DNA of 42,812 nucleotides from a virus. Lineage: Duplodnaviria; Heunggongvirae; Uroviricota; Caudoviricetes. The translations under genes and the position numbers were made by a program. The stretch lies in the IMG/VR virus record IMGVR_UViG_2872192773_000007; one strand, 5' to 3'. Each line of letters opens with the position of its first letter. Position 1 is the first letter of the stretch. Below are positions 1,637 to 34,377 of the stretch, one piece after another. A model generated the notes under the pieces. The model searched no databases. It saw nothing but the letters and a program-made list of their open reading frames with translations, and was not told where the DNA came from.

Positions 1637-2163
1637 TATTAGCTCCTTCTGATGCCATTCTATTTCAGGAAGGAGTGTCCGTTAAACTCAGGCTACCTCA
1701 CTTATTCTAAGCAACCGGGTAGCATCATACGGGGCAATTATGGCCGCATTACCATACATGCAACTGTACATAGCTGATTACCTGGCTGACACCATGCATT
1801 TGTCAGCAGAGGAGCACGGCGCGTATTTGTTGCTGATGTTCAATTACTGGCAAACAGGAAAGCCAATACCCAAAAACAGGTTGGCAAAAATTGCCCGTCT
1901 GACTAACGAGCGATGGGTTGATGTTGAACCATCCTTGCGGGAGTTTTTTTGTGATAACGGCGACGAATGGATGCATCTTCGGATTGAGGAAGATCTGGCA
2001 TCTGTCAGAGAAAAATTAACCAAAAAATCAGCCGCAGGAAAAGCATCTGTTCAGGCCAGAAGAAGCAGAAAGGAAGCAGATGTTCAAACAAAACAAGAGA
2101 GAAATTTAACAGGTGTTCAAACAGATGTTGGAGTGGTGTTCGAACATGATGCTGGATTTGCCC

Positions 2164-3069
2164 CTATATTTCCAGACATCTGTTATCACTTAACCCATTA
2201 CAAGCCCGCTGCCGCAGATATTCCCGTGGCGAGCGATAACCCAGCGCACTATGCGGATGCCATTCGTTATAATGCTCGAACGCCTCTGCAAGGTTCTTTG
2301 CTGCCGTTAACCCGTCTGGTTTGGGCATGATACTGATGTAGTCACGCTTTATCGTTTTCACGAAGCTCTCTGCTATTCCGTTACTCTCCGGACTCCGCAC
2401 CGCCGTGTTCTTCGGTTCAAGTCCCAACATCCGGGCGAACTGGCGTGTTTCATTAGCCCGGTAGCATGAACCATTATCCGTCAGCCACTCCACTGGAGAC
2501 GACGGAAGATCGTTGCCGAAGCGGCGTTCCACTGCTCCCAGCATGACGTCCTGTACTGTTTCACTGTTGAAGCCGCCGGTAGTCACCGCCCAGTGCAGTG
2601 CCTCACGATCACAGCAGTCCAGCGCGAACGTGACACGCAGTCTCTCTCCGTTATCACAGCAGAACTCGAACCCGTCAGAGCACCATCGCTGATTGCTTTC
2701 TTTCACGGCCACTCTGCCTGTATGTGCCCGTTTCGATGGCGGTACAGCAGGTTTTCGCTCAAGCAACAGCGCATTCTGGCGCATGAGCCGGTAAACACGT
2801 TTGGCATTGATCGCAGGCATACCATCAAGTTCTGCCTGTCTGCGAAGCAGCGCCCATACCCGACGATAACCATACGTGGGCAGCTCTCCGATAACATGGT
2901 GTATACGGAGAAGCACATCCGTATCATCAGTGTGACGACTGCGGCGGCCATCCATCCAGTCATCGGTTCGTCTGAGAATGACGTGCAACTGCGCACGCGA
3001 CACCCGGAGACAACGGCTGACTAAGCTTACTCCCCATCCCCGGGCAATAAGGGCGCGTGCGCTATCCAC
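2164..3069 (-). CDS. insD: IS2 transposase InsD
   Basis: 301-aa ORF, identical in both IS2 copies. Confidence 0.9.
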
Positions 3070-3392
3070 TTTTTTGCCCGTCCATATTCAACGGCTTCTT
3101 TGAGGAGTTCATTTTTCATCGTTTTCTTGCCGAGCAGGCGCTGGAGTTCTTTAATCTGCTTCATGGCGGCAGCAAGTTCAGAGGCAGGAACAACCTGTTC
3201 TCCGGCGGCCACAGCAGTAAGACTTCCTTCCTGGTATTGCTTACGCCAGAGAAATAACTGGCTGGCTGCTACACCATGTTGCCGGGCAACGAGGGAGACC
3301 GTCATCCCCGGTTCAAAGCTCTGCTGAACAATTGCGATCTTTTCCTGTGTGGTACGCCGTCTGCGTTTCTCCGGCCCTAAGACATCAATCAT
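3027..3392 (-). CDS. insC: IS2 InsC
   Basis: 121-aa [28 protein letters not shown]...; upstream in-frame extension in the ORF track is leader. Confidence 0.85.
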
Positions 3393-4230
3393 CTGTTCTC
3401 CAATGACTAGTCTAAAAACTAGTATTAAGACTATCACTTAAATAAGTGATACTGGTTGTCTGGAGATTCAGGGGGCCAGTCTAGATGCCAACACAAAGGC
3501 AACTAATAAAGATACAGATAAAGATCTAAAAACAGATCTAACCCATCCCAAACCCTTCCCTTCCGGAAGGGAGTTTCGGGATTTTGTGGCTGGAGTGCTT
3601 GAGGGGAGATTATCTGGCGGTACTGCAGCGGAATTTTGTAATTCTGCGGTGGTTGCGTTGCAGGCTGCTGGCCTGGATGTCTGTCGTGAGTATCCGGTGC
3701 CAGAGCGTGGTGACGGTTGCGGAGGGCGGATTGATATCGTCGTGACTGACAGGAACGGTGTCCGGTGTGGGATCGAGCTTGACCGAAATTCTCCGCGACA
3801 GAAATCACTGCTCAAAATCGGTGCTGTTGAAACCGGGATATGTGTCTTGCGGCGCAGTGATATCGCAAGGCACACCGAGCAGGGAATTCTGGTTATCGGT
3901 GGGGCTGTTCGCCAGAAAAAATTTGACCCGTTGTCAGTTGATCTGCCCGACTGGTTGCCAGAAACACTCTGGCATGAGTGGGTCCAGTTCAGGCAGGCAT
4001 TGCGAAAACCGATTCGAACGGAGCTGGGCGCTAACGGGGCGATACGGGAACTGGAAAAATTCCGTCAGCAGGGTTTTACACCTGAGCAGGTGATTCGACA
4101 CAGCATCGCCAATGAATACCAGGGTCTGTTCGCGCCGAAAGGTGTTCGGCCTGAGACGTTGCTCCGACAGGTTAACACCGTCTCGTTGCCGGACAGTGCG
4201 ATCCCGCTAGGCTTCAGGGGGTAACAGACC

Positions 4231-4974
4231 ATGAAAAATATTGCGACAGGAGGCGTTCTGGAGCGTATCCGCAGACTGACCCCACCACATGTAACCGCCC
4301 CATTCAGAACGGTTGCGGAGTGGCGCGAGTGGCAACTTGCTGAAGGCCAGAAACGTTGCGAGGAGATCAACCGCCTGAATCGTCAGTTGCGGGTGGAAAA
4401 AATCCTCCGCTCCGGCATCCAGCCGTTGCACCGGAAGTGTTCGTTTGCGAATTACCGGGCGCAGAACGACGGTCAGCGACATGCACTGAGTCAGGCGAAA
4501 TCCATAGCTGACGAACTGATGACAGGCTGTACGAATTTTGTGTTCAGCGGTAAGCCCGGCACCGGAAAAAATCATCTTGCAGCCGCGATTGGCAACCGGC
4601 TGATGGCGAAGGGGCGTAGCGTGATTATCGTCACCGTGTCCGATGTCATGAGCGTGTTGCATGAGAGCTACGACAACGGCAAATCCGGTGAAAAATTTTT
4701 ACAGGAGCTTTGTGGTGTTGACCTGCTGGTCCTGGATGAAATTGGCATGCAGCGGGATACGAAAAACGAGCAGGTGGTACTGAACCAGATTGTTGATCGC
4801 CGGACGGCATCGTTACGCGGTGTGGGGATGCTGACAAATATTAACCATGCAGCGATGAATACACTTCTCGGCGAGCGGGTGATGGATCGCATGGTCATGA
4901 ACGGCGGGCGCTGGGTTAATTTTAACTGGGAGAGCTGGCGTCCGAATGTTAGCCATTCGAGGGTTGTTAAGTAG
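4231..4974 (+). CDS. DnaC-like replicative helicase loader (phage replication ATPase)
   Basis: Walker A GKPGTGKNHLAAAIG and Walker B DLLVLDEIG; sits directly after the replication-initiator gene, as in Rac ydaU-ydaV. Confidence 0.8.
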   Translation: MKNIATGGVLERIRRLTPPHVTAPFRTVAEWREWQLAEGQKRCEEINRLNRQLRVEKILRSGIQPLHRKCSFANYRAQNDGQRHALSQAKSIADELMTGCTNFVFSGKPGTGKNHLAAAIGNRLMAKGRSVIIVTVSDVMSVLHESYDNGKSGEKFLQELCGVDLLVLDEIGMQRDTKNEQVVLNQIVDRRTASLRGVGMLTNINHAAMNTLLGERVMDRMVMNGGRWVNFNWESWRPNVSHSRVVK

Positions 4975-4988
4975 TTTCAGGAGGATTT

Positions 4989-5411
4989 ATGGCGAAACCT
5001 TTTACTCCCGAACAGCGGGAAGAACTGAAGACGCGAATTGTGGAACTCGTGCATCAGGACGGTCGGGTCACGATTCGGCAGTTGTCCGATGAAACAGGTA
5101 TCAGTCGTGCGTCTGTCGGTCGCTTATGCATAGAACTGGTCGCAAGTGGTGATGTATATAATTCTGGCTACGGCTTATTCCCGTCTGAACAGGCTCGCAA
5201 GGACTGGCAAAGCGCCCGCAAAAAACTCTCGAGAGTAAAGGTGAGGAAACCGGTTGTTGTTGATCCGGACCTTATCTGGTCATTACCTGACGGAGAAATA
5301 CGCCGCTACGACAGGCGCCTGAATATAATCTGTCGCGAGTGCCGGAAGAGCGAAGCTATGCAGCGTGTACTGGCTTTCTATCAGGGTAATTTTCAGGAGG
5401 CGATACTGTGA
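4989..5411 (+). CDS. hypothetical phage protein with winged-helix-like segment
   Basis: 140-aa ORF with GGAGG-type RBS; HTH-like VTIRQLSDETGISRASVGRL. Confidence 0.5.
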   Translation: MAKPFTPEQREELKTRIVELVHQDGRVTIRQLSDETGISRASVGRLCIELVASGDVYNSGYGLFPSEQARKDWQSARKKLSRVKVRKPVVVDPDLIWSLPDGEIRRYDRRLNIICRECRKSEAMQRVLAFYQGNFQEAIL

Positions 5412-7616: not shown

Positions 7617-7646
7617 AAAACCCCGGATTGATGGTCCGGGGTTTTT
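7617..7646 (+). terminator. rho-independent terminator
   Basis: AAACCCCGGA-loop-TCCGGGGTTTTT hairpin with T-run. Confidence 0.5.
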
Positions 7647-7984
7647 GAAGGAAACAAAACAGAAACAGCAATTGCCGTTACCTGTTGTTACCATGGCAAG
7701 TAAACGTATCTCAGGCGAGCGCATTGCGCCGTTCTGACGCAGATAAATTAGCCTGGATAGAAGGTGCTGGCAATAAAAAATAGCGTTTTCTTATCGGTAT
7801 CGGTAAGATTGCTGCGGGTGCTTGAGGCTGTCTGCCTCGGGCATGCCACTGTAAGGCAGACAGAGAAAAGCCCCAGTTAACATTACGCGTCCTGCAAGAC
7901 GCTTAACATTAATCTGAGGCCCAATCTATGTCTCACAAATGTAGGTTAGCCTCTTACGTGCCGAAAGGCAAGGAGAAGCAGGCT

Positions 7985-8140
7985 ATGAAGCAGCAAAAGG
8001 CGATGTTAATCGCCCTGATCGTCATCTGTTTAACCGTCATAGTGACGGCACTGGTAACGAGGAAAGACCTCTGCGAGGTACGAATCCGAACCGGCCAGAC
8101 GGAGGTCGCTGTCTTCACAGCTTACGAACCTGAGGAGTAA
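7985..8140 (+). CDS. hok: Hok/Gef-family type I toxin (51 aa)
   Basis: MKQQKAMLIALIVICLTVIVTALVTRKDLCEVRIRTGQTEVAVFTAYEPEE, recognised Hok-family sequence; structured leader upstream and terminator downstream. Confidence 0.8.
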   Translation: MKQQKAMLIALIVICLTVIVTALVTRKDLCEVRIRTGQTEVAVFTAYEPEE

Positions 8141-8628: not shown

Positions 8629-8645
8629 TAGGTAATGACTCCAAC

Positions 8646-9149
8646 TTACTGATAGTGTTTTATGTTCAGATAATGCCCGATGACCTTGTCATGCAGCTCC
8701 ACCGATTTTGAGAACGACAGTGACTTCCGTACCAGCCTTGCCAGATGTTGTCTCAGATTCAGATTATGTCGCTCAATGCGCTGAGTGTAACGCTTGCTGA
8801 TAACGTGCAGCTTTCCCTTCAGGCGTGATTCATACAGCGGACAGCCATCCGTCATCCATACCACGACCTCAAAGGCCGACAGCAGGCTCAGAAGACGCTC
8901 CAGTGTGGCCAGAGTGCGTTCACCGAAGACGTGCGCCACAACCGTCCTCCGTATCCTGTCATACGCGTAAAACAGCCAGCGCTGACGTGATTTAGCACCG
9001 ACGTAGCCCCAATGTTCGTCCATTTCAGCGCAGACAATCACATCACTGCCCGGTTGTATGCGCGAGGTTACCGACTGCGGCCTGAGTTTTTTAAGTGACG
9101 TAAAACCGTGTTGAGGCCAACGCCCATAATGCGTGCACTGGCGCGACAT
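8646..9149 (-). CDS. insB: IS1 InsB frame (expressed as InsAB' by frameshifting)
   Basis: 167-aa ORF overlapping the insA 3' end. Confidence 0.85.
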
Positions 9150-9343
9150 CCGACGCCATTCATGGCCATATCAATGATTTTCTGGTGCGTACCGGGCTGA
9201 GAGGCGGTGTAAGTGAACTGTAGTTGCCATGTTTTACGGCAATGAGAGCAGAGATAGCGCTGATGTCCGGCAGTGCTTTTGCCGTTACGCACCACGCCTT
9301 CAGTAGCGGAGCAGGAAGGACATCTGATGGAAATGGAAGCCAC
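9068..9343 (-). CDS. insA: IS1 InsA
   Basis: 91-aa [43 protein letters not shown]. Confidence 0.85.
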
Positions 9344-9476
9344 GCAAGCACCTTAAAATCACCATCATACACTAAATCAGTAAGTTGGCAGCATTACCCT
9401 GTTAGTATTGGCATTAATTCTGGTATACTACATAACGGGCTGAACACCCATTCTACTGCGCCAGCGGAGAACTACG

Positions 9477-21018: not shown

Positions 21019-21876
21019 CTAATTGGGTGATAACAGATCCTGTGTATGGGCGTTTCCCTTTGTGCGTGCGTTGATGCTGGTAACGGTAAACGTCATGATG
21101 AACACGACCGCGAATAAGACGACAATCGTCGGAGCTGGTGCGCTGTCGATAAAAAAGGACAGCCAGACACCAGTCATTGACACTATTACCGATATGCCAG
21201 TCGCCAGTAGGAGCGCAATATGAAAGCGTTGTGTCAGGAGTACTGCAATGGCGCCAGGCGCAATGAGCAGAGAAATAGAGAGAATGATACCTACTGCTTT
21301 CAGCGTCGCCACAATGGTCAGGGAAACCATGCACAGCAGCCCATAATGCAGCCATCTCGTATGCAAACCGCTTACCTGCGCCTGTTGATAATCAAAGCTG
21401 AACAGCAAAAAATCCCGCCATTTTACGCTAATAACAAGTGTAACCAGCCCGGCAATAATCACCGTCTGGATTATATCGCCGATGGTTATCCCGAGCATGT
21501 CGCCGAAAAGAATATGGTCAAGATGTACGTCTGGTTTAATTGCAATATACAAGATCAGACCTGCGGCAAACATGCCAGAAAAAACAATCCCCATAACTGT
21601 ATCTTGCTTGATTCGGCTGTTGTCTTTCAGGTATCCCGTCGCCACCGCGCAGAATACTCCGGCGACGAATGCCCCTGTAGCCAGAGGTAACCCCAGAATC
21701 CAGGTAAGCACGATGCCAGGAAAAACCGCATGACTCATCGCGTCACCCATCAGTGCCCAACCTTTCAGGACCAGAAAGACCGACAGCAGCGCACAGGGTA
21801 TGGAAACTACCAGTGAAATCAGCAGTGCGTGACTCATAAAGGTGAACTGCAGTGGCTCCAGTAATAATGCCATCAT
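21019..21876 (-). CDS. sitD: Mn/Fe ABC transporter permease SitD
   Basis: 285-aa multi-pass membrane protein, last gene of a four-gene minus-strand operon with overlapping stop/start codons. Confidence 0.85.
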   Translation of the reverse strand: MMALLLEPLQFTFMSHALLISLVVSIPCALLSVFLVLKGWALMGDAMSHAVFPGIVLTWILGLPLATGAFVAGVFCAVATGYLKDNSRIKQDTVMGIVFSGMFAAGLILYIAIKPDVHLDHILFGDMLGITIGDIIQTVIIAGLVTLVISVKWRDFLLFSFDYQQAQVSGLHTRWLHYGLLCMVSLTIVATLKAVGIILSISLLIAPGAIAVLLTQRFHIALLLATGISVIVSMTGVWLSFFIDSAPAPTIVVLFAVVFIMTFTVTSINARTKGNAHTQDLLSPN

Positions 21877-22730
21877 GAGCGATCCTCCAGCGCTTTATGC
21901 GCACGCCGACGATTTGCCAAAAGTCCATGGGTGGGCGCAAATACAAATGCTAAAAGAAACAGCAGTGTCTGCGCCACCACGATGATTCCACCTGTCGCGC
22001 CGTCCAGAAAGTAACTGACCCACGCGCCGAGGAAACTGGTTACACTGCCAATAGTTACAGCAATTATGAGCAGGCGGGGAAAACGATCGGTTAACAACCA
22101 TGCTGTTGCACCGGGAGTCACCACCAGACAGATCACCAGAAACGCACCAACCGTTTGCAGCGCCGCAACGGTCGAAACCGACAGCAGGGTGAAGAAGAGG
22201 ATTTTTAATCTGCCCGGATGTAATCCAATAGCACGGGCGTGATTCTCGTCGAAAAAGGTCACCATAAGATCTTTCCATTTGAAAAAAAGCACGATGATCG
22301 AGAGAATGCCAATGATAGTGAGTTGCAGGATATCCGCCGGATCGATTGCCAGAATATTGCCCAGGACGATGGTCTGAATGTTCACGGATGTCGGGTTCAA
22401 TGACACCATAAACAGCCCCAGGCCAAAAAAGGACGAGAAGATCAGGCCGATGATGGCATCTTCTTTTAAGCGGGTGCGTTGGTTAAGAAACAGCATGCTG
22501 CCCGCTGCCAGTCCGCCGGAAAAGAAGGCTCCCAGAGAAAACGGAAGCCCCAGCATATATGCCCCCGCAACACCCGGGACAATAGAGTGCGACAGCGCAT
22601 CGCCAATCAGCGACCAGCCTTTTAGCATCAGATAGCATGACAGGAAAGCGCAGAGACCGCCGACCATTGCCGAGACCCACATCGCATTGAGCATATATTC
22701 ATAGCTGAAGGGTTCCAGTAGCACGTTCAT
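21873..22730 (-). CDS. sitC: Mn/Fe ABC transporter permease SitC
   Basis: 285-aa permease paralogous to SitD. Confidence 0.85.
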
Positions 22731-23554
22731 CTTGCTTCCCTCTGCACCGCTGACGGTCGATGTGCCACAAAAGGGCGTTCATCGTCAGTAATAATGCTTT
22801 CTTCCGAGCCGTTAAGTGTGACATGGCGCAGTACGCCGCTAAAAGCCAGCTCCAGGTTCTCGGCTGTAAAAGTGGTGTCTGTCGGCCCGCTTGCCAGGAC
22901 GGTGCCTTTGACCATGACCGTATAATCGCAAAATGTCGTGACTGAGCCGAGATTGTGCGTTGAGACAAGCATCGTTTTGCCTTCCGCGCGTAACTCCCTC
23001 AACAGGCTGATGATTTTCGCTTCGGTTTTCACATCAACGCCGGTAAAAGGTTCATCCAGCAGGATCACATCACCCTGCTGTGCAATTGCTCTCGCCAGAA
23101 AGACGCGTTTCTTTTGTCCACCGGAAAGCTCGCCGATTTGACGATGGCGAAAATCCACCATATCGACACGTTCCAGCGCATCGGTGACAATCTGACGATC
23201 CCTCTTTTTGGCTATACGCAACATACCCATATGCCCATAGCGGCCCATCATCACCACATCTTCCACCAGTACAGGAAATGACCAGTCAACCTCTTCTGAC
23301 TGAGGGACGTAGGCAACCAGGTTTTTCTGTAGCGCCTGTCGCGTGGGAATACCCAGAACAGATATCTTTCCGCTGGTCAGACGCACAAATCCCATAATCG
23401 CTTTAAACAACGTCGATTTTCCGGAACCGTTTACCCCAACCAGAGCGGCAATAGATCCACTTGGTACTGTGAAGGATGCATCGCGCAGTGCTGTGTGCCC
23501 GTTACGCCAGGTGACAGTAACATCATTAACGACAATGCCTGCAGATTGCATCAT
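22727..23554 (-). CDS. sitB: Mn/Fe ABC transporter ATP-binding protein SitB
   Basis: Walker [13 protein letters not shown] signature LSGGQKKR, Walker B ILLDEP. Confidence 0.9.
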
Positions 23555-24468
23555 TATTTCTCCCTTTTCCCGGCTTTAATTCCCTGTACCAGCGTACTGG
23601 TAGTAACCTTAAGAAGGTCGATATACGTAGGTACCGGGCCGTTTTCTGTGCTCAGGGAATCGACATAGAGCACACCGCCGTAGTGTGCGCCGGTTTCACG
23701 CGCAACCTGACGCGCTGGTTTATCGGAAATCGTACTCTCGCTAAAGACTGCCGGGATATGATTTTTCTTAACTATATCAACAACCTTACGTACCTGCTGC
23801 GGTGTTCCTTGTTGATCGGCATTAATCGGCCACAGATAAAGCTCTTTTAGCCCCAAATCGCGTGCGAGATAAGAAAAAGCCCCTTCACTGGTGACCATCC
23901 ATCGCTGATTCTCAGGGAGTTCCGTAATCTGCTTACGCAGGGGGGCAAGGGTTTGGGTAATCTTGGCTTTATAAGTATCGGCATTACGTTGGTAGGTTTG
24001 TGCATTTGCCGGATCGTATTTTATCAACGCATCACGAATATTATCGACGTAAATCAGAGCATTATCTGGCGACATCCATGCATGGGGATTAGGTTTGCCC
24101 TCATAGGGTCCTTCGGTGATCCCTACTGGCGTCACACCCGAAGAGACAATTACTTCTGGAACCCCATTGAGATGCTGGTAAAAGCGTTGGAACCACAATT
24201 CCAGATTCATACCATTGGCGAGAATCAGTTGTGCCCCCTGCGCACGTTTAATATCGCCAGGGGTAGGCTGATACTCATGAATTTCTGCACCAGGCTTGGT
24301 TATGGATGAGACTTCTGCAGCATCTCCAGCCACGTTTTTGGCCATATCCGCGATGATGGTAAATGTTGTAATGACCTTGAATTTTTCAGTTGCACTTGCC
24401 TGAAATGCGATCGAGCAGGTGAGGGCGAGGCACCCCAAGAGCATGGTTACTTTTTTTATTGAGTGCAT
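23554..24468 (-). CDS. sitA: periplasmic Mn/Fe-binding protein SitA
   Basis: 304 aa with signal peptide [26 protein letters not shown]; cluster-9 metal-binding-protein fold signature. Confidence 0.9.
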
Positions 24469-24500
24469 AATTTAGTACCTATAGTGAGCAAAATTAGAAC

Positions 24501-24522
24501 AAACATAGCAACGGCTATGTTT
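24501..24522 (-). promoter_or_regulatory. MntR-box-like palindrome upstream of sitA
   Basis: AAACATAGC-AACG-GCTATGTTT perfect inverted repeat about 35-55 bp upstream of the sitA start. Confidence 0.5.
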
Positions 24523-24544
24523 TATAGCATAACCTATACAAAAT

Positions 24545-24563
24545 GAAAATAATTATCATTAAC
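24545..24563 (-). promoter_or_regulatory. Fur-box-like site upstream of sitA
   Basis: GAAAATAATTATCATTAAC, 15/19 match to GATAATGATAATCATTATC. Confidence 0.45.
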
Positions 24564-24683
24564 AGCTTTGAGGCCTAAAACAGGGATTAGGTTGTTTCCT
24601 GCTGGCGACATGATATTGAGGAAAAAAGTAGAGCAGCTATTAGGCTTTGAAATGACTTTATGAGGAAAATTGTTGATGGCAAA

Positions 24684-24930
24684 AATGGGGCAAAACGCTG
24701 TATAAGGGGCAAAAAAGGGGCAAAAAAGGGGCAAAAAAGAGTGGGTTATCGTAGCTTATTGTTGTCGCTGATAATGTTTAACATATTGAAAAATAAATAA
24801 AATACTTATGAGTCAGATAGTTGTGATTTTTGCCCTTACTTGTTCAGGTCGTATTGTTCTTTCTTTGTAATTTGTTGATTTTCTTGCATTATTTCAGTTC
24901 TCTGGTACTAAATGGGGCAAATTGGGGGCA
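24684..24930. repeat. iteron-like GGGGCAAAA repeat array with AT-rich spacer
   Basis: At least 7 copies of (A)GGGGCAAA(A), including 3 tandem 11-bp units at about 24705-24740 and one inverted copy; AT-rich 24760-24900; sits at the 3' end of the integrase gene. Confidence 0.5.
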
Positions 24931-24940
24931 AACTTTGCAA

Positions 24941-25580
24941 CTACGATAACCGCGCATTCAACATGGCTATCTGTTCGTCGTTCATGTCATCAATCCACAT
25001 ACCGTAAATTTCATACACCATTTGCGCAGTTTCATGCCCCATCTGGCTGGCTATAAATGCCGGGTTCGCTCCTGCCGTCAACAGCCAGCAGGCAAAAGTA
25101 TGTCGCGTGTGGTACGGATTACGGCGGCGAATACCAGCACGTTTTACTGCTGCATTCCATCTTGTACCCAAACTGCTTACCGAGTAATAAGGTTTCTGTT
25201 TTTCGTTACACACCCTGGGCATGAAAACAAAATGCAGTTTTTGTTTTTCAGTTCTGCCGTACTCCCGATGATAAAAAGTGATTTCGCTTTTGCGATGATG
25301 CCCGGTCAGTTTGTATTGCTCCTTCAGTGCTTCAAGAGCCGGCTGCAGTAATGTTACCGTCCGGATCCCGGCATTTGTTTTTGGGGGACCGAACATATCA
25401 AGTATCGTCAGGTTTCTTCTGACATTCACAATTCCCTTCTCGAAATCCACATCCTCCCACGCCAGAGCTGCCAGTTCCCCGTGACGAAGCCCGGAGTAAA
25501 CGGCAAATTTCCACAAGTTTTGGCTCTGTCCTTTTTCACTTTCCATTAATGCATTGAATTCTGTTTTAGATAACGGGTCA
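24941..25580 (-). pseudogene. tyrosine recombinase (integrase) C-terminal catalytic part, 5'-truncated by IS1
   Basis: R...HTRHTFACWLL...Y motifs; reading frame runs into the IS1 left end. Confidence 0.7.
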
Positions 25581-25635
25581 GGTAATGCTGCCAACTTACT
25601 GATTTAGTGTATGATGGTGATTTTAAGGTGCTTGC

Positions 25636-25911
25636 GTGGCTTCCATTTCCATCAGATGTCCTTCCTGCTCCGCTACTGAAGGCGTGGTGCGTAACGGCAA
25701 AAGCACTGCCGGACATCAGCGCTATCTCTGCTCTCATTGCCGTAAAACATGGCAACTACAGTTCACTTACACCGCCTCTCAGCCCGGTACGCACCAGAAA
25801 ATCATTGATATGGCCATGAATGGCGTCGGATGTCGCGCCAGTGCACGCATTATGGGCGTTGGCCTCAACACGGTTTTACGTCACTTAAAAAACTCAGGCC
25901 GCAGTCGGTAA
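25636..25911 (+). CDS. insA: IS1 InsA
   Basis: 91-aa ORF. Confidence 0.85.
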
Positions 25912-26333
25912 CCTCGCGCATACAACCGGGCAGTGATGTGATTGTCTGCGCTGAAATGGACGAACATTGGGGCTACGTCGGTGCTAAATCACGTCAGCGC
26001 TGGCTGTTTTACGCGTATGACAGGATACGGAGGACGGTTGTGGCGCACGTCTTCGGTGAACGCACTCTGGCCACACTGGAGCGTCTTCTGAGCCTGCTGT
26101 CGGCCTTTGAGGTCGTGGTATGGATGACGGATGGCTGGCCGCTGTATGAATCACGCCTGAAGGGAAAGCTGCACATTATCAGCAAGCGTTACACTCAGCG
26201 CATTGAGCGACATAATCTGAATCTGAGACAACATCTGGCAAGGCTGGTACGGAAGTCACTGTCGTTCTCAAAATCGGTGGAGCTGCATGACAAGGTCATC
26301 GGGCATTATCTGAACATAAAACACTATCAGTAA
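25830..26333 (+). CDS. insB: IS1 InsB frame
   Basis: 167-aa ORF (one W/C substitution relative to the other copies). Confidence 0.85.
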
Positions 26334-26349
26334 GTTGGAGTCATTACCC

Positions 26350-26520
26350 ACCGGAACTGATTTGATGAACTATCAACGCTCTTAAATTCCCGGCCTTTTT
26401 AATGTTACTGTTAGTAATCTCCCAGCCTTTCAATGTTTCCCGACATCGTTTTCCTCGAAACATGAACCAGATGCGAATGTATTTACCTCGAATCTCGACA
26501 CCTGTTGGTAATTTAGACAT
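26350..26520 (-). pseudogene. integrase N-terminal fragment (about 57 aa)
   Basis: Minus-strand translation MSKLPTGVEIRGKYIRIWFMFRGKRCRETLKGWEITNSNIKKAGNLRALIVHQ... (integrase N-terminal arm-binding-domain type); same orientation as the C-terminal fragment on the other side of IS1. Confidence 0.5.
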
Positions 26521-26736
26521 ATCATGAGTCTTTGATAAACTGATTTATCTTCGGATAGTTGTACCAGATAATCCCTCGCTTACTGTCTGGCTTCCCTAAA
26601 GGAGATACTCGTTTGAAGTGGAAGCCTTCCACCCAACAGTTCTGGCGGTATGCTTCAATTTGTCTGGCACCCAGACCAGTGCGAAGCATCAGGCTGAACC
26701 GCCCCGGGTTTCCTGGAGAGTGTTTTATCTGTGAAC

Positions 26737-27619
<883 letters not shown>

Positions 27620-27623
<4 letters not shown>

Positions 27624-27946
27624 TTTTTCCAGAGGCGGTCGAACTCCGCCTTCGCAAAATAAGCGGAAGCCTGGCGAAGGATATCGTTACTGCGGTGCAG
27701 TTCACGATTTTCACGCTCCAGCTCTTTCAGACGCTGACGTTCAGCGGTGGTGAGCCCTCCATCACCGCCCCCGGTATCCCGCTCATGCTGGCGAACCCAG
27801 ACACGCAGAGTCTCCGGCGTACAGCCAATCTTTGGGGCAATGGAACAAATTGTCGCCCATTGTGAGTCATATTCGCCCTGACTTTCCAGAACCATACGGA
27901 CTGCCCGTTGACGGACTTCGGGGGAAAAACGAGTATTTTTAGTCAT
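27620..27946 (-). CDS. IS629 OrfA
   Basis: 108-aa [26 protein letters not shown]... Confidence 0.85.
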
Positions 27947-28000: not shown

Positions 28001-28361
28001 TTCCCAAAATGCACTTGGTTTTACACCGGAATATTCTCATCGTATCCTGCTTGTTGCGTTTCGTTTTGTGTTTGTGGATCCGGGAATGCATATTCAACGC
28101 CTTCCAGTTCAATCCATAGTGCATTACGACCAGCTTTGATTGTCGGCCAGTCCATACCTTTGATTCTTTCCCATGAGCGGGAGGTGAATGTTTTTTCCAG
28201 CAAATCAGCTTTTGCGCGTTTGGCGTCGTTACTGGTGCCCCCATGGTGCTTGTTGAGCAACTCGATAATTTCATCAAGTTAATTTCATCAAGTGCGATTT
28301 CTTTTGCACGCTTTTCTTTTAGCCATGTCGGTGTACCGTCGTTGGCAAATAATTCACTGTT
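28001..28361 (-). pseudogene. phage gene fragment (Rac-like recombination-module region), frameshifted by a 14-bp tandem duplication
   Basis: Two overlapping minus-strand ORF pieces; perfect tandem TAATTTCATCAAGT x2 at about 28266-28293; bounded by IS629 and IS911. Confidence 0.3.
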
Positions 28362-28369
28362 TGAAGTGG

Positions 28370-29538
<1,169 letters not shown>

Positions 29539-29610
29539 TGGAGCACCTGTGTTGTTCTGAGGTGAGCATATCACCTCTGTTCAGGTGGCCAAATTCAGTG
29601 TGCCACTTCA

Positions 29611-29861
29611 CAGCCATGTACCGGATGTGTTCTGCCATGCGCTCCTGAAACTCAACATCATCATCAAATGCGTGGCTGATTGCCTGTTTATTGGCACCGT
29701 GGCGTTGCAAATGGTCGATGCAGAGCGATTCAAACAGGTGCTGAGGCAGACCTTTTTCCAGGTCGTCCGCCAGTTCCGTTTCTTTTTCTTCACGAACGAT
29801 CTGCTGGTAGTGACGAGCCCATGCCATTTCTTCAATACGATCAAAAATCGGATAAGCGCTC
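29611..29861 (-). pseudogene. gene fragment trapped between IS911 and IS600 (about 83 codons, both ends missing)
   Basis: Open minus-strand frame ...[57 protein letters not shown]...; identity not established. Confidence 0.3.
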
Positions 29862-29925
29862 TGAGGTAGCCTGAGTTTAACGGACACTCCTTCCTGAAAT
29901 AGAATGGCATCAGAAGGAGCTAATA

Positions 29926-30228
29926 ATGAGCAGAAAAACCCAACGTTACTCTAAAGAGTTCAAAGCCGAAGCTGTCAGAACGGTTCTTGAAAATCAACTT
30001 TCGATCAGTGAAGGCGCTTCCCGATTATCTCTTCCTGAAGGCACTTTAGGACAATGGGTTACCGCCGCCAGAAAAGGGCTCGGTACTCCTGGTTCCCGCA
30101 CGGTGGCTGAACTGGAATCTGAAATTCTGCAACTGCGTAAGGCGTTAAATGAAGCTCGCCTTGAGCGAGATATATTAAAAAAAGCAACAGCGTATTTTGC
30201 ACAGGAGTCGCTGAAAAATACGCGTTAA
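29926..30228 (+). CDS. IS600 OrfA
   Basis: 100-aa ORF. Confidence 0.9.
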
Positions 30229-30263
30229 TCGAACAATGGCGACAACAATTTCCCATTGAAGCG

Positions 30264-31082
30264 ATGTGTCAGGTATTTGGTGTATCCAGGAGCGGTTATT
30301 ACAACTGGGTACAGCATGAACCCTCAGACAGAAAACAAAGTGATGAGCGGCTAAAACTGGAGATTAAGGTGGCACATATCCGCACTCGCGAAACATATGG
30401 AACCCGGCGGCTCCAGACGGAGCTGGCAGAGAATGGCATCATCGTTGGTCGTGACCGACTGGCACGTCTTCGTAAGGAGCTGAGGCTACGCTGTAAGCAG
30501 AAACGCAAGTTCAGAGCGACTACGAACCCGAACCACAATCTGCCAGTTGCGCCAAATCTGCTGAACCAGACGTTCGCTCCTACAGCACCAAATCAGGTCT
30601 GGGTGGCGGACCTGACGTATGTTGCCACACAGGAGGGATGGTTGTACCTCGCTGGCATCAAAGATGTTTATACGTGTGAAATTGTCGGCTACGCCATGGG
30701 AGAGCGCATGACAAAAGAGCTGACAGGTAAAGCCCTGTTTATGGCGCTCAGGAGCCAGCGCCCACCTGCCGGGCTAATCCACCACTCTGATCGAGGTTCA
30801 CAGTACTGCGCATACGATTACCGGGTCATACAGGAGCAGTCTGGTCTGAAAACATCAATGTCGCGTAAAGGTAACTGTTACGACAACGCTCCGATGGAAA
30901 GCTTCTGGGGAACGCTGAAAAATGAGAGCCTGAGCCACTATCGTTTTAATAACCGGGATGAAGCCACCTCAGTAATACGGGAATACATTGAGATTTTCTA
31001 CAATCGTCAGCGTCGTCACTCTCGTCTGGGGAATATCTCCCCGGCAGCCTTCAGGGAAAAATATCATCAGATGGCTGCTTAA
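30264..31082 (+). CDS. IS600 OrfB
   Basis: 272-aa ORF (one I/T substitution). Confidence 0.9.
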   Translation: MCQVFGVSRSGYYNWVQHEPSDRKQSDERLKLEIKVAHIRTRETYGTRRLQTELAENGIIVGRDRLARLRKELRLRCKQKRKFRATTNPNHNLPVAPNLLNQTFAPTAPNQVWVADLTYVATQEGWLYLAGIKDVYTCEIVGYAMGERMTKELTGKALFMALRSQRPPAGLIHHSDRGSQYCAYDYRVIQEQSGLKTSMSRKGNCYDNAPMESFWGTLKNESLSHYRFNNRDEATSVIREYIEIFYNRQRRHSRLGNISPAAFREKYHQMAA

Positions 31083-31129
31083 AAAAAGAACAAATGGTAG
31101 TGTCCGCTATTGCCAGTACACCTCACAGG

Positions 31130-33395: not shown

Positions 33396-33471
33396 GGAAG
33401 CCTCCTTAATAAACAGTCTTACAAAGGAAATCTCAGGAAAGTTATTTAATACTTAGCAGCTGGATTTGCCC

Positions 33472-34377
33472 CTATATTTCCAGACATCTGTTATCACTTA
33501 ACCCATTACAAGCCCGCTGCCGCAGATATTCCCGTGGCGAGCGATAACCCAGCGCACTATGCGGATGCCATTCGTTATAATGCTCGAACGCCTCTGCAAG
33601 GTTCTTTGCTGCCGTTAACCCGTCTGGTTTGGGCATGATACTGATGTAGTCACGCTTTATCGTTTTCACGAAGCTCTCTGCTATTCCGTTACTCTCCGGA
33701 CTCCGCACCGCCGTGTTCTTCGGTTCAAGTCCCAACATCCGGGCGAACTGGCGTGTTTCATTAGCCCGGTAGCATGAACCATTATCCGTCAGCCACTCCA
33801 CTGGAGACGACGGAAGATCGTTGCCGAAGCGGCGTTCCACTGCTCCCAGCATGACGTCCTGTACTGTTTCACTGTTGAAGCCGCCGGTAGTCACCGCCCA
33901 GTGCAGTGCCTCACGATCACAGCAGTCCAGCGCGAACGTGACACGCAGTCTCTCTCCGTTATCACAGCAGAACTCGAACCCGTCAGAGCACCATCGCTGA
34001 TTGCTTTCTTTCACGGCCACTCTGCCTGTATGTGCCCGTTTCGATGGCGGTACAGCAGGTTTTCGCTCAAGCAACAGCGCATTCTGGCGCATGAGCCGGT
34101 AAACACGTTTGGCATTGATCGCAGGCATACCATCAAGTTCTGCCTGTCTGCGAAGCAGCGCCCATACCCGACGATAACCATACGTGGGCAGCTCTCCGAT
34201 AACATGGTGTATACGGAGAAGCACATCCGTATCATCAGTGTGACGACTGCGGCGGCCATCCATCCAGTCATCGGTTCGTCTGAGAATGACGTGCAACTGC
34301 GCACGCGACACCCGGAGACAACGGCTGACTAAGCTTACTCCCCATCCCCGGGCAATAAGGGCGCGTGCGCTATCCAC
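33472..34377 (-). CDS. insD: IS2 transposase InsD
   Basis: 301-aa ORF. Confidence 0.9.

Follow-up and report, generated by a model that had tools for sequence, protein, structure and literature searches.

The attP of phage lambda carries the arm-type sites P1, P2, and P′1–P′3, the IHF sites H1, H2, and H′, and a core with the layout C-O-C′, and an attP architecture with arm-type sites is textbook knowledge; such sites are short motifs remote from the crossover point. Excisionase normally binds the P arm, where its sites are typically short direct repeats (cf. X1 and X2 in lambda).

Closer to the locus described here is the Rac prophage of Escherichia coli K-12, the excision of which has been experimentally documented and the integration of which swaps the N-terminus of TtcA (PMC4632033). 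The integrase (Int) of the Stx2 phage 933W, which is inserted in wrbA, is 44% identical to the Rac integrase IntR, while that of the P2-like phage phiCTX, with the 3′ end of a tRNA gene as its core, is 34% identical in alignment (31% by tblastn). No description of arm-type sites for Rac, IntR, 933W, or their relatives, nor of the motif string GGGGCA itself, was found in the searchable literature.

The present analysis concerns a repeat array between sitA and the 3′ end of an intR gene within a 42.8-kb window (i.e., the whole stretch of DNA that was analysed). The window is Shigella-like, with an IpaH effector, the CssrB sRNA, and many IS copies, and is 99.6–100% identical to S. flexneri SFBU1023 over 5.5 kb. 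With a probability that we put at roughly 0.85, the GGGGCAAA repeats of this array would be arm-type integrase sites of a complete Rac-type lambdoid attP, situated at the joint of two Rac-type prophage remnants in a Shigella chromosome.

Repeats and genes at the junction

Six exact copies of GGGGCAAA lie on the plus strand within 246 bp (starting at 24687, 24706, 24717, 24728, 24914, and 24925), and the whole 42.8-kb window holds nine matches on both strands vs. 1.72 ± 1.31 expected, a number reached in none of 100 shuffles. The array pointed out in the preliminary description of this locus is therefore real and non-random, although its count of at least seven copies stands only when inverted or degenerate copies are included. 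The three perfect 11-bp tandem units that it listed were recovered by Tandem Repeats Finder as the unit AAGGGGCAAAA, repeated 3.3 times at 24704–24739, and a degenerate copy (GGCAAAAAT, 24678–24686) precedes the first exact GGGGCAAA copy by 11 bp. Its AT-rich stretch was found as well, with a G+C content of 31% between the two repeat groups (24741–24905) vs. 49% window-wide, and a tyrosine integrase ORF on the minus strand indeed ends beside the array, at 24941.

The inverted copy is likewise present, but as a near-copy (24827–24835) that probably falls outside the repeat family. It is kept in close Rac relatives, but since the attPs of phages 933W and RothC have no counterpart, it was rejected as a family member; it is probably not an arm-type site, and its role is uncertain. 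Two small ORFs over the array (24660–24800, plus strand, 46 aa; 24534–24734, minus strand, 66 aa) were rejected as candidate genes, since the plus-strand ORF runs through the repeats and this arm does not code for protein in the Rac clade.

To the right of the repeats follow, in order, the C-terminal part of intR, an IS1, a 423-bp deletion, the N-terminal part of intR, part of xisR, IS elements, a truncated recE, and racC-ydaE-kilR, and this succession of intR, xisR, recE, racC, ydaE, and kilR is the gene order of the left end of Rac. To the left, Rac-like ydaU/ydaV and other phage genes are followed by sitABCD.

The IS load of the window is very high, with copies 99.7–100% identical within each set. 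Besides the IS1 in intR (25581–26348), self-BLAST revealed two further IS1 copies (8631–9399 and 16393–17161). A 1.26-kb IS3-family element is present in five copies, one of them partial (437–1702, 11241–12507, 17162–18112, 29862–31128, and 41060–42323), a 1.25-kb IS3-family element in two (13720–14970 and 28361–29611), and a 1.33-kb IS element also in two (2151–3484 and 33459–34792). An ALIL frameshift pseudoknot was located at 27549–27665, a sok antitoxin RNA at 7816–7990, and the Shigella sRNA CssrB at 40000–40182, beside ipaH. A cluster of four tRNA genes lies on the plus strand between IS copies (13223–13530), inside the left prophage remnant.

Comparison with the Rac attachment sites of E. 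coli K-12

Both Rac junctions of E. coli K-12 were taken and aligned with the window, and BLAST against K-12 Rac agreed with the alignment. Positions 24669–24839 correspond to the phage side of K-12 Rac attR (i.e., the P arm) and positions 24866–24940 to the phage side of attL (i.e., the P′ arm), which continues into the 3′ end of intR. Between them lies the 26-bp core, which occurs only once in the window. The sequence is thus composed of the attR phage-side arm, the common core, and the attL phage-side arm of a prophage known to excise, and since this P-O-P′ order is by definition that of the attP of the excised Rac circle, the site is an intact attP. It is not the attL or attR that the preliminary description had proposed, since both K-12 junctions align with it. 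The coordinates of the attP, its parts, and its neighbours are given in Table 1.

Table 1. Features of the Rac-type attP and of the adjoining genes (window coordinates).
Feature	Position	Strand	Remarks
sitABCD operon (sitA 23554–24468)	21019–24468	−	Cargo of the left-hand Rac-type prophage, at its right end
Rac-type attP, complete (P arm, core, P′ arm)	24669–24940		About −176 to +80 from the core centre; alignment with K-12 Rac junctions
P-arm pair 1 (candidate arm sites): degenerate half-site ATGGCAAAAA (from 24676) and exact GGGGCAAAA (from 24687)	24676–24695	+	GGCA starts 11 bp apart
P-arm tandem array (candidate arm sites): three perfect 11-bp units, GGGGCAAAA at 24706, 24717, and 24728	24706–24736	+	
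Two IHF-consensus-like sites, one mismatch each	24779–24808	24779–24791 −, 24796–24808 +	AT-rich P arm, between arm sites and core
Inverted near-copy TTTTTGCCC (GGGCAAAAA on the minus strand)	24827–24835	−	4 bp from the core; TGCCCT is one mismatch from TGCCCC
Phage-borne substitute ttcA 5′ end	24836–24889	−	ATG 24889–24887; 17-codon stump MQENQQITKKEQYDLNK and stop, ending in P-arm sequence; read from sequence
Rac core/overlap, 26 bp, TTGTTCAGGTCGTATTGTTCTTTCTT	24840–24865		Segment common to K-12 attL and attR, except for T-to-C at 24850
Exact IHF consensus AATCAACAAATTA	24868–24880	−	Between core and P′ pair, lambda H′-like position; sole exact match in the 42.8-kb window
P′-arm pair (candidate arm sites): GGGGCAAA at 24914 and 24925, 11 bp apart	24914–24932	+	Ends 9 bp before the intR stop codon
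intR C-terminal fragment, residues about 198–411 (214 codons), catalytic domain	24941–25582	−	Cut by IS1; NCBIfam tyrosine recombinase matches
IS1 interrupting intR, with adjacent 423-bp intR deletion	25581–26348		IS1 transposase 25830–26333; gap 7642 to 8065 in K-12 BLAST
intR N-terminal 57 codons and most of xisR	26349–26694	−	95% to K-12 (L005, 8065–8410); then cut by an IS3-family element

Identity between the window and the K-12 Rac junctions amounts to ca. 97% for the P′ arm and intR, and to ca. 89% for the P arm, where the difference consists mostly of an extra 11-bp unit in the window. They have in common the repeat motif, the 26-bp core, and the substitute ttcA 5′ end. The K-12 prophage carries one arm at each of its ends, as attL and attR, whereas in the window the two arms are joined. 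The window further differs from K-12 by three instead of two tandem P-arm units, by an intR destroyed by IS1, by sitABCD instead of ynaM/ynaE as the left neighbour, and by one substitution in the core. This T-to-C change lies in an otherwise invariant core, turns an Asn into an Asp in the ttcA stump, and is absent from K-12, H22, and S. flexneri SFBU1023. The start codon of K-12 ttcA is located within the same P′ sequence.

BLAST against phages also matched 24679–24882 to the right-hand terminus of phage Rac-SA53, the annotation of which includes an att core there. Three different left contexts (i.e., sit in the window, ynaM in K-12, and a tail-fibre gene in Rac-SA53) converge at the first repeat (position ~24676), and this onset of homology fits the repeat being the functional edge of the attP.

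The arm-site motif in the IntR integrase family

Written as GGGGCA(AA), the repeat occurs four times on the P arm and twice on the P′ arm and is absent from the core, so that the motif repeated on both arms differs from the core sequence. The tyrosine integrase gene next to it is broken by IS1 in the window, but full-length K-12 IntR carries a separate N-terminal Pfam domain Arm-DNA-bind_2 (PF12167; residues 5–69, E-value of 4e-26) in front of its tyrosine-recombinase catalytic domain (PF00589), so that IntR is expected to recognize, besides the core, another class of sites at a distance from it.

The conservation of the motif was assessed with one genome per species, i.e., 80 loci (L094–L173) from many Enterobacterales genera with an Int 42–100% identical to IntR. 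A pair was counted when TGCCCC-N5-TGCCCC, with no more than one of its 12 defined letters mismatched, fell between −20 and +110 nt of the Int C-terminus. Such a pair was found in 76 of the 80 loci, the other four having degenerate versions, against a background of one pair in the remaining 784,466 positions of these loci on both strands. The bases around and between the hexamers vary across the loci, and in distant IntR relatives the GGGGCA pair lies inside the int C-terminal coding tail with its two copies in different reading frames, so that the constraint is on the DNA and not on the protein. The integrase gene of the more distant IntR relatives thus carries its own P′ arm sites.

The preliminary description had recommended a comparison with the attP arms of phages with a homologous integrase, and the attPs of 933W and RothC have the motif on both arms and in one orientation. 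Six GGGGCA copies form three 11-bp-spaced pairs on the P arm of 933W, with one further pair on P′ at the int 3′ end, and Klebsiella phage RothC (Int 43% identical to IntR) has one GGGGCA pair on each arm. The motif is therefore kept with the integrase family (76 of the 80 loci, 933W, and RothC) while core and flanks change, and these comparisons strongly support a function as arm-type integrase sites, one of the roles that had been put forward for the repeats.

The window and 933W thus share 11-bp-spaced GGGGCA pairs on both arms, in a single orientation, and in both of them the P′ pair lies where int has its 3′ end. In contrast to the window, the annotated core of 933W is different and shorter (7 bp), its P-arm pairs are three in number, and its P′ pair is inside the int coding tail. 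In phiCTX, an 11-bp-spaced direct-repeat pair is likewise found on each side of the core (a 2 + 2 layout), but the repeat is GTTCCCA instead of GGGGCA. As for lambda, its attP resembles that of the window in its length of ca. 250 bp, its location just downstream of the int 3′ end, its short core, its arm repeats, which on either side bear no relation to the core sequence, its tandem sites about one helical turn apart beside int, its intervening AT-rich DNA, which in the window holds candidate IHF sites, and its integrase with a separate N-terminal arm-binding domain. The window differs from lambda in its candidate arm motif (GGGGCA), domain family (PF12167), 11-bp-spaced pairs, and core in the ttcA 5′ end.

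The resemblance of the IHF-like layout to that of lambda is suggestive only. Three IHF-like sites with at most one mismatch are present in the 286-bp att region vs. 0.26 expected from the window density (ca. 11-fold), in DNA that is AT-rich, and the exact match at 24868–24880 falls inside the ttcA coding stump, with the native ttcA 5′ end (K-12 ttcC) also fitting the consensus.

On this basis, the site would be the attP of a heterobivalent, lambda-type tyrosine integrase, in which IntR would contact GGGGCA(AA) through its N-terminal arm-binding domain and act on the 26-bp ttcA core with its C-terminal domains. The putative arm sites would be paired one helical turn (11 bp) apart, as two P-arm pairs, one of them enlarged to three units here, and a single P′ pair abutting the int stop codon, and the AT-rich DNA with its IHF-like sites might let the arms fold back on the core, as in lambda. 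IntR does contain an arm-binding domain and the paired motif is family-wide; that IntR binds the GGGGCA repeats is what we infer.

A scan of IMG/VR with IntR for the footprint yielded only 99–100% identical copies, most of them ending right after int. The phage record vB_EcoS-683R6 (99% IntR, located mid-record) was considered as a free attP and rejected, as it is a prophage with the host flanks ttcA and dbpA.

Origin of an intact attP in a chromosome

The most likely reason for an intact attP in a chromosome is that two Rac-type prophages were inserted in tandem at ttcA, one with sit and the other with ipaH. An incoming attP of the same integration specificity would have recombined with the resident attL or attR, leaving a P-O-P′ joint between two prophages, of which the left one would end with the sitABCD cargo and the right one start with the IS1-broken intR. 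Such arrangements are by convention interpreted as prophages in tandem at a common att site (PMC8112680). The tandem history was read from the window, and the outer attL (with a second intR) and attR would lie outside of it. The array had earlier been taken to mark the boundary between the sit operon and a prophage remnant; a boundary it is, but with sit being cargo of a Rac-type prophage, it would be the junction of two prophage remnants.

Among 5426 complete E. coli genomes, the P-O-P′ joint was present in 38, while part of the junction sequence was matched in 2918, mostly at attL- or attR-type places. In E. coli Jnd12, the joint connects late genes to a full intR-xisR-recET, and in E. coli H22 it links a complete prophage with sit to no more than a piece of int.

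The same element could also have had another history, in which the P-O-P′ order arose by rearrangement of a single prophage, i.e., by excision and re-insertion through homologous or IS-mediated recombination, or by an inversion between lambdoid prophages. The window is packed with IS copies, the Jnd12 genome has only one att-related place, and the gene order of the window by itself (ydaU/V, late genes, sit, attP, intR, and then kilR) is compatible with a single genome in circular permutation, all of which would suit such a rearrangement. Nevertheless, H22 has, in addition to its full sit prophage, P-O-P′, and int fragment, a second att place elsewhere, which fits a deleted second prophage. Moreover, a 712-bp segment (98.5% identical) occurs both next to sitD (20077–20788) and next to ipaH (37235–37946; ipaH at 38156–39871, minus strand), as expected for two related prophages, suggesting that the sit and ipaH cargos occupy the same position in these prophages. 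The window also contains two sets of the C4 antisense RNA/isrK module, one per prophage remnant (10937–11138, plus strand, and 35391–35579, minus strand). We therefore regard the rearrangement of a single prophage as unlikely, albeit worth keeping in mind.

Other functions of the repeats

The preliminary description had also mentioned excisionase, and the repeats might be sites for XisR (i.e., the excisionase or recombination directionality factor) instead of the integrase. The tandem 11-bp array sits on the P arm, and XisR binds the Rac attR fragment that contains it (PMC4632033). The same study by Liu et al., however, reported in EMSA that XisR shifts the 294-bp AttR fragment and not the 291-bp AttM fragment (PMC4632033). 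When the published primers were mapped on K-12 (locus L004), AttM proved to span 4669–4959, i.e., all P-arm GGGGCA copies (4817, 4836, and 4847) up to one base before the core (4960), whereas AttR spans 4790–5083 and comprises the same P-arm repeats plus the core and the bacterial side. A fragment with every P-arm repeat is thus left unshifted, indicating that the repeats are insufficient for XisR binding. Furthermore, the P′ pair abutting int has the same motif and is kept in 76 of the 80 relatives, and the motif tracks an integrase family with a conserved arm-binding domain, so that an XisR function of the repeats appears quite improbable.

As an observation in its own right, the XisR EMSA is positive only when the core and the B′ side are added and negative on the whole P arm. 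An excisionase would not usually bind elsewhere than on the P arm, and the EMSA should therefore be used with caution.

The second role suggested early on, an iteron-type replication origin of a genomic island, would have an initiator bind the repeats and melt the adjoining AT-rich stretch. The direct repeats do adjoin a stretch of 31% G+C, but the flanking genes are sitA and intR without an adjacent initiator gene, and the only replication-type genes (ydaU/ydaV-like and DnaC-like) are 20 kb away. No match to the DnaA box TTATNCACA was found within 24684–24930 with one mismatch allowed, and the 11-bp unit with its conserved core of 6–8 bp falls below the usual iteron length. A distance of 23 kb separates the two halves of the array in K-12, one being at attR and the other at attL, and they do not form a contiguous unit with the AT-rich region there, while across the 80 loci the motif follows integrase genes. 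Taken together, the adjacent initiator, the DnaA boxes, and the contiguous array with AT-rich unit of an iteron origin are all missing, and such an origin is very improbable.

Hardly any credence can be given to the repeats as a regulatory region of sitABCD (e.g., operators for Fur, MntR, or another regulator), since, although they precede the start codon of sitA by 210–470 bp and have an MntR-like palindrome nearby (24501–24522), they do not travel with sit in other contexts, the upstream region of the sit operons of lambdoid phages with other integrases (phage 21, Perceval, and lambda-like ev phages) being common only up to 24665 and without the repeats, and K-12 and Rac-SA53 having the repeats with no sit there.

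In the BLAST against phages, the part shared with these sit-carrying phages is 24469–24665, i.e., the sit promoter region, and the homology stops just before the repeats, which indicates that the repeats belong to the att/int module. They are therefore not the ordinary sitA upstream sequence that the preliminary description had named as the finding that would speak against it. Perceval carries sitABCD as a moron (PMC9928086).

Within the sit promoter region, we noticed a perfect 9-bp inverted repeat, AAACATAGC-N4-GCTATGTTT (24501–24522), which the terminator scan flagged as a hairpin, and a Fur-box-like AT-rich sequence, AAATAATTATCATTA (about 24545–24564), upstream of sitA. Judged by eye, the two resemble operators of the sit promoter for MntR and Fur, respectively. 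The promoter/terminator scan gave counts not above those of shuffles, with this palindrome as the single "terminator", and a scan of 24469–24940 at Rfam gathering thresholds returned no RNA family, on which ground an RNA element was rejected.

Present state of the attP and array length

Returning to the site as a Rac-type attP, it is most likely inert in this genome, given that IS1 splits an intR that has also lost 423 bp, that only a truncated xisR is left, that the core carries a substitution, and that strains which are nearly identical differ in their number of repeats. The array is length-polymorphic among close relatives. The P arm of the window has four GGGGCA copies, of which three stand in tandem, whereas K-12, Rac-SA53, and H22 each have three and S. 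flexneri SFBU1023 has one, with the tandem array itself comprising three units in the window vs. two in K-12, Rac-SA53, and E. coli H22. In S. flexneri SFBU1023 (L130, 3540–3860, vs. window 24687–24728), a 41-bp repeat-to-repeat deletion has left the single P-arm GGGGCA. An exact search of IMG/VR for the three-unit array yielded no match, so that the third unit looks lineage-specific.

Implications

The element is an ordinary one that does not challenge current understanding. The Rac attL/attR and the ttcA core were already known, and the family-wide GGGGCA pair is a modestly new point. For Shigella, the analysis places the sit locus at the right-hand end of a Rac-type prophage, which is followed head-to-tail by another Rac-type remnant, with ipaH, and the tandem arrangement would explain why two virulence cargos have become neighbours at the ttcA hotspot.

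For a large integrase clade including the Stx-phage integrases, the comparison yields a candidate arm-site consensus of TTTGCCCC-N5-TGCCCCA at the int 3′ end, which may be of use for locating the ends of prophages and for designing minimal attP substrates. It is conceivable, though we hold it only tentatively and consider it rather doubtful, that GGGGCA-N5-GGGGCA is the common arm-site motif of the whole IntR/Int933W clade (PF12167), whatever the attB, and that co-resident integrases could occupy each other's arms. If so, Rac, Qin-type, Stx (933W), Klebsiella/Enterobacter, and other prophages might help or hinder each other's integration and excision, and leftover attPs like the one described here could serve as decoys or secondary recombination partners.
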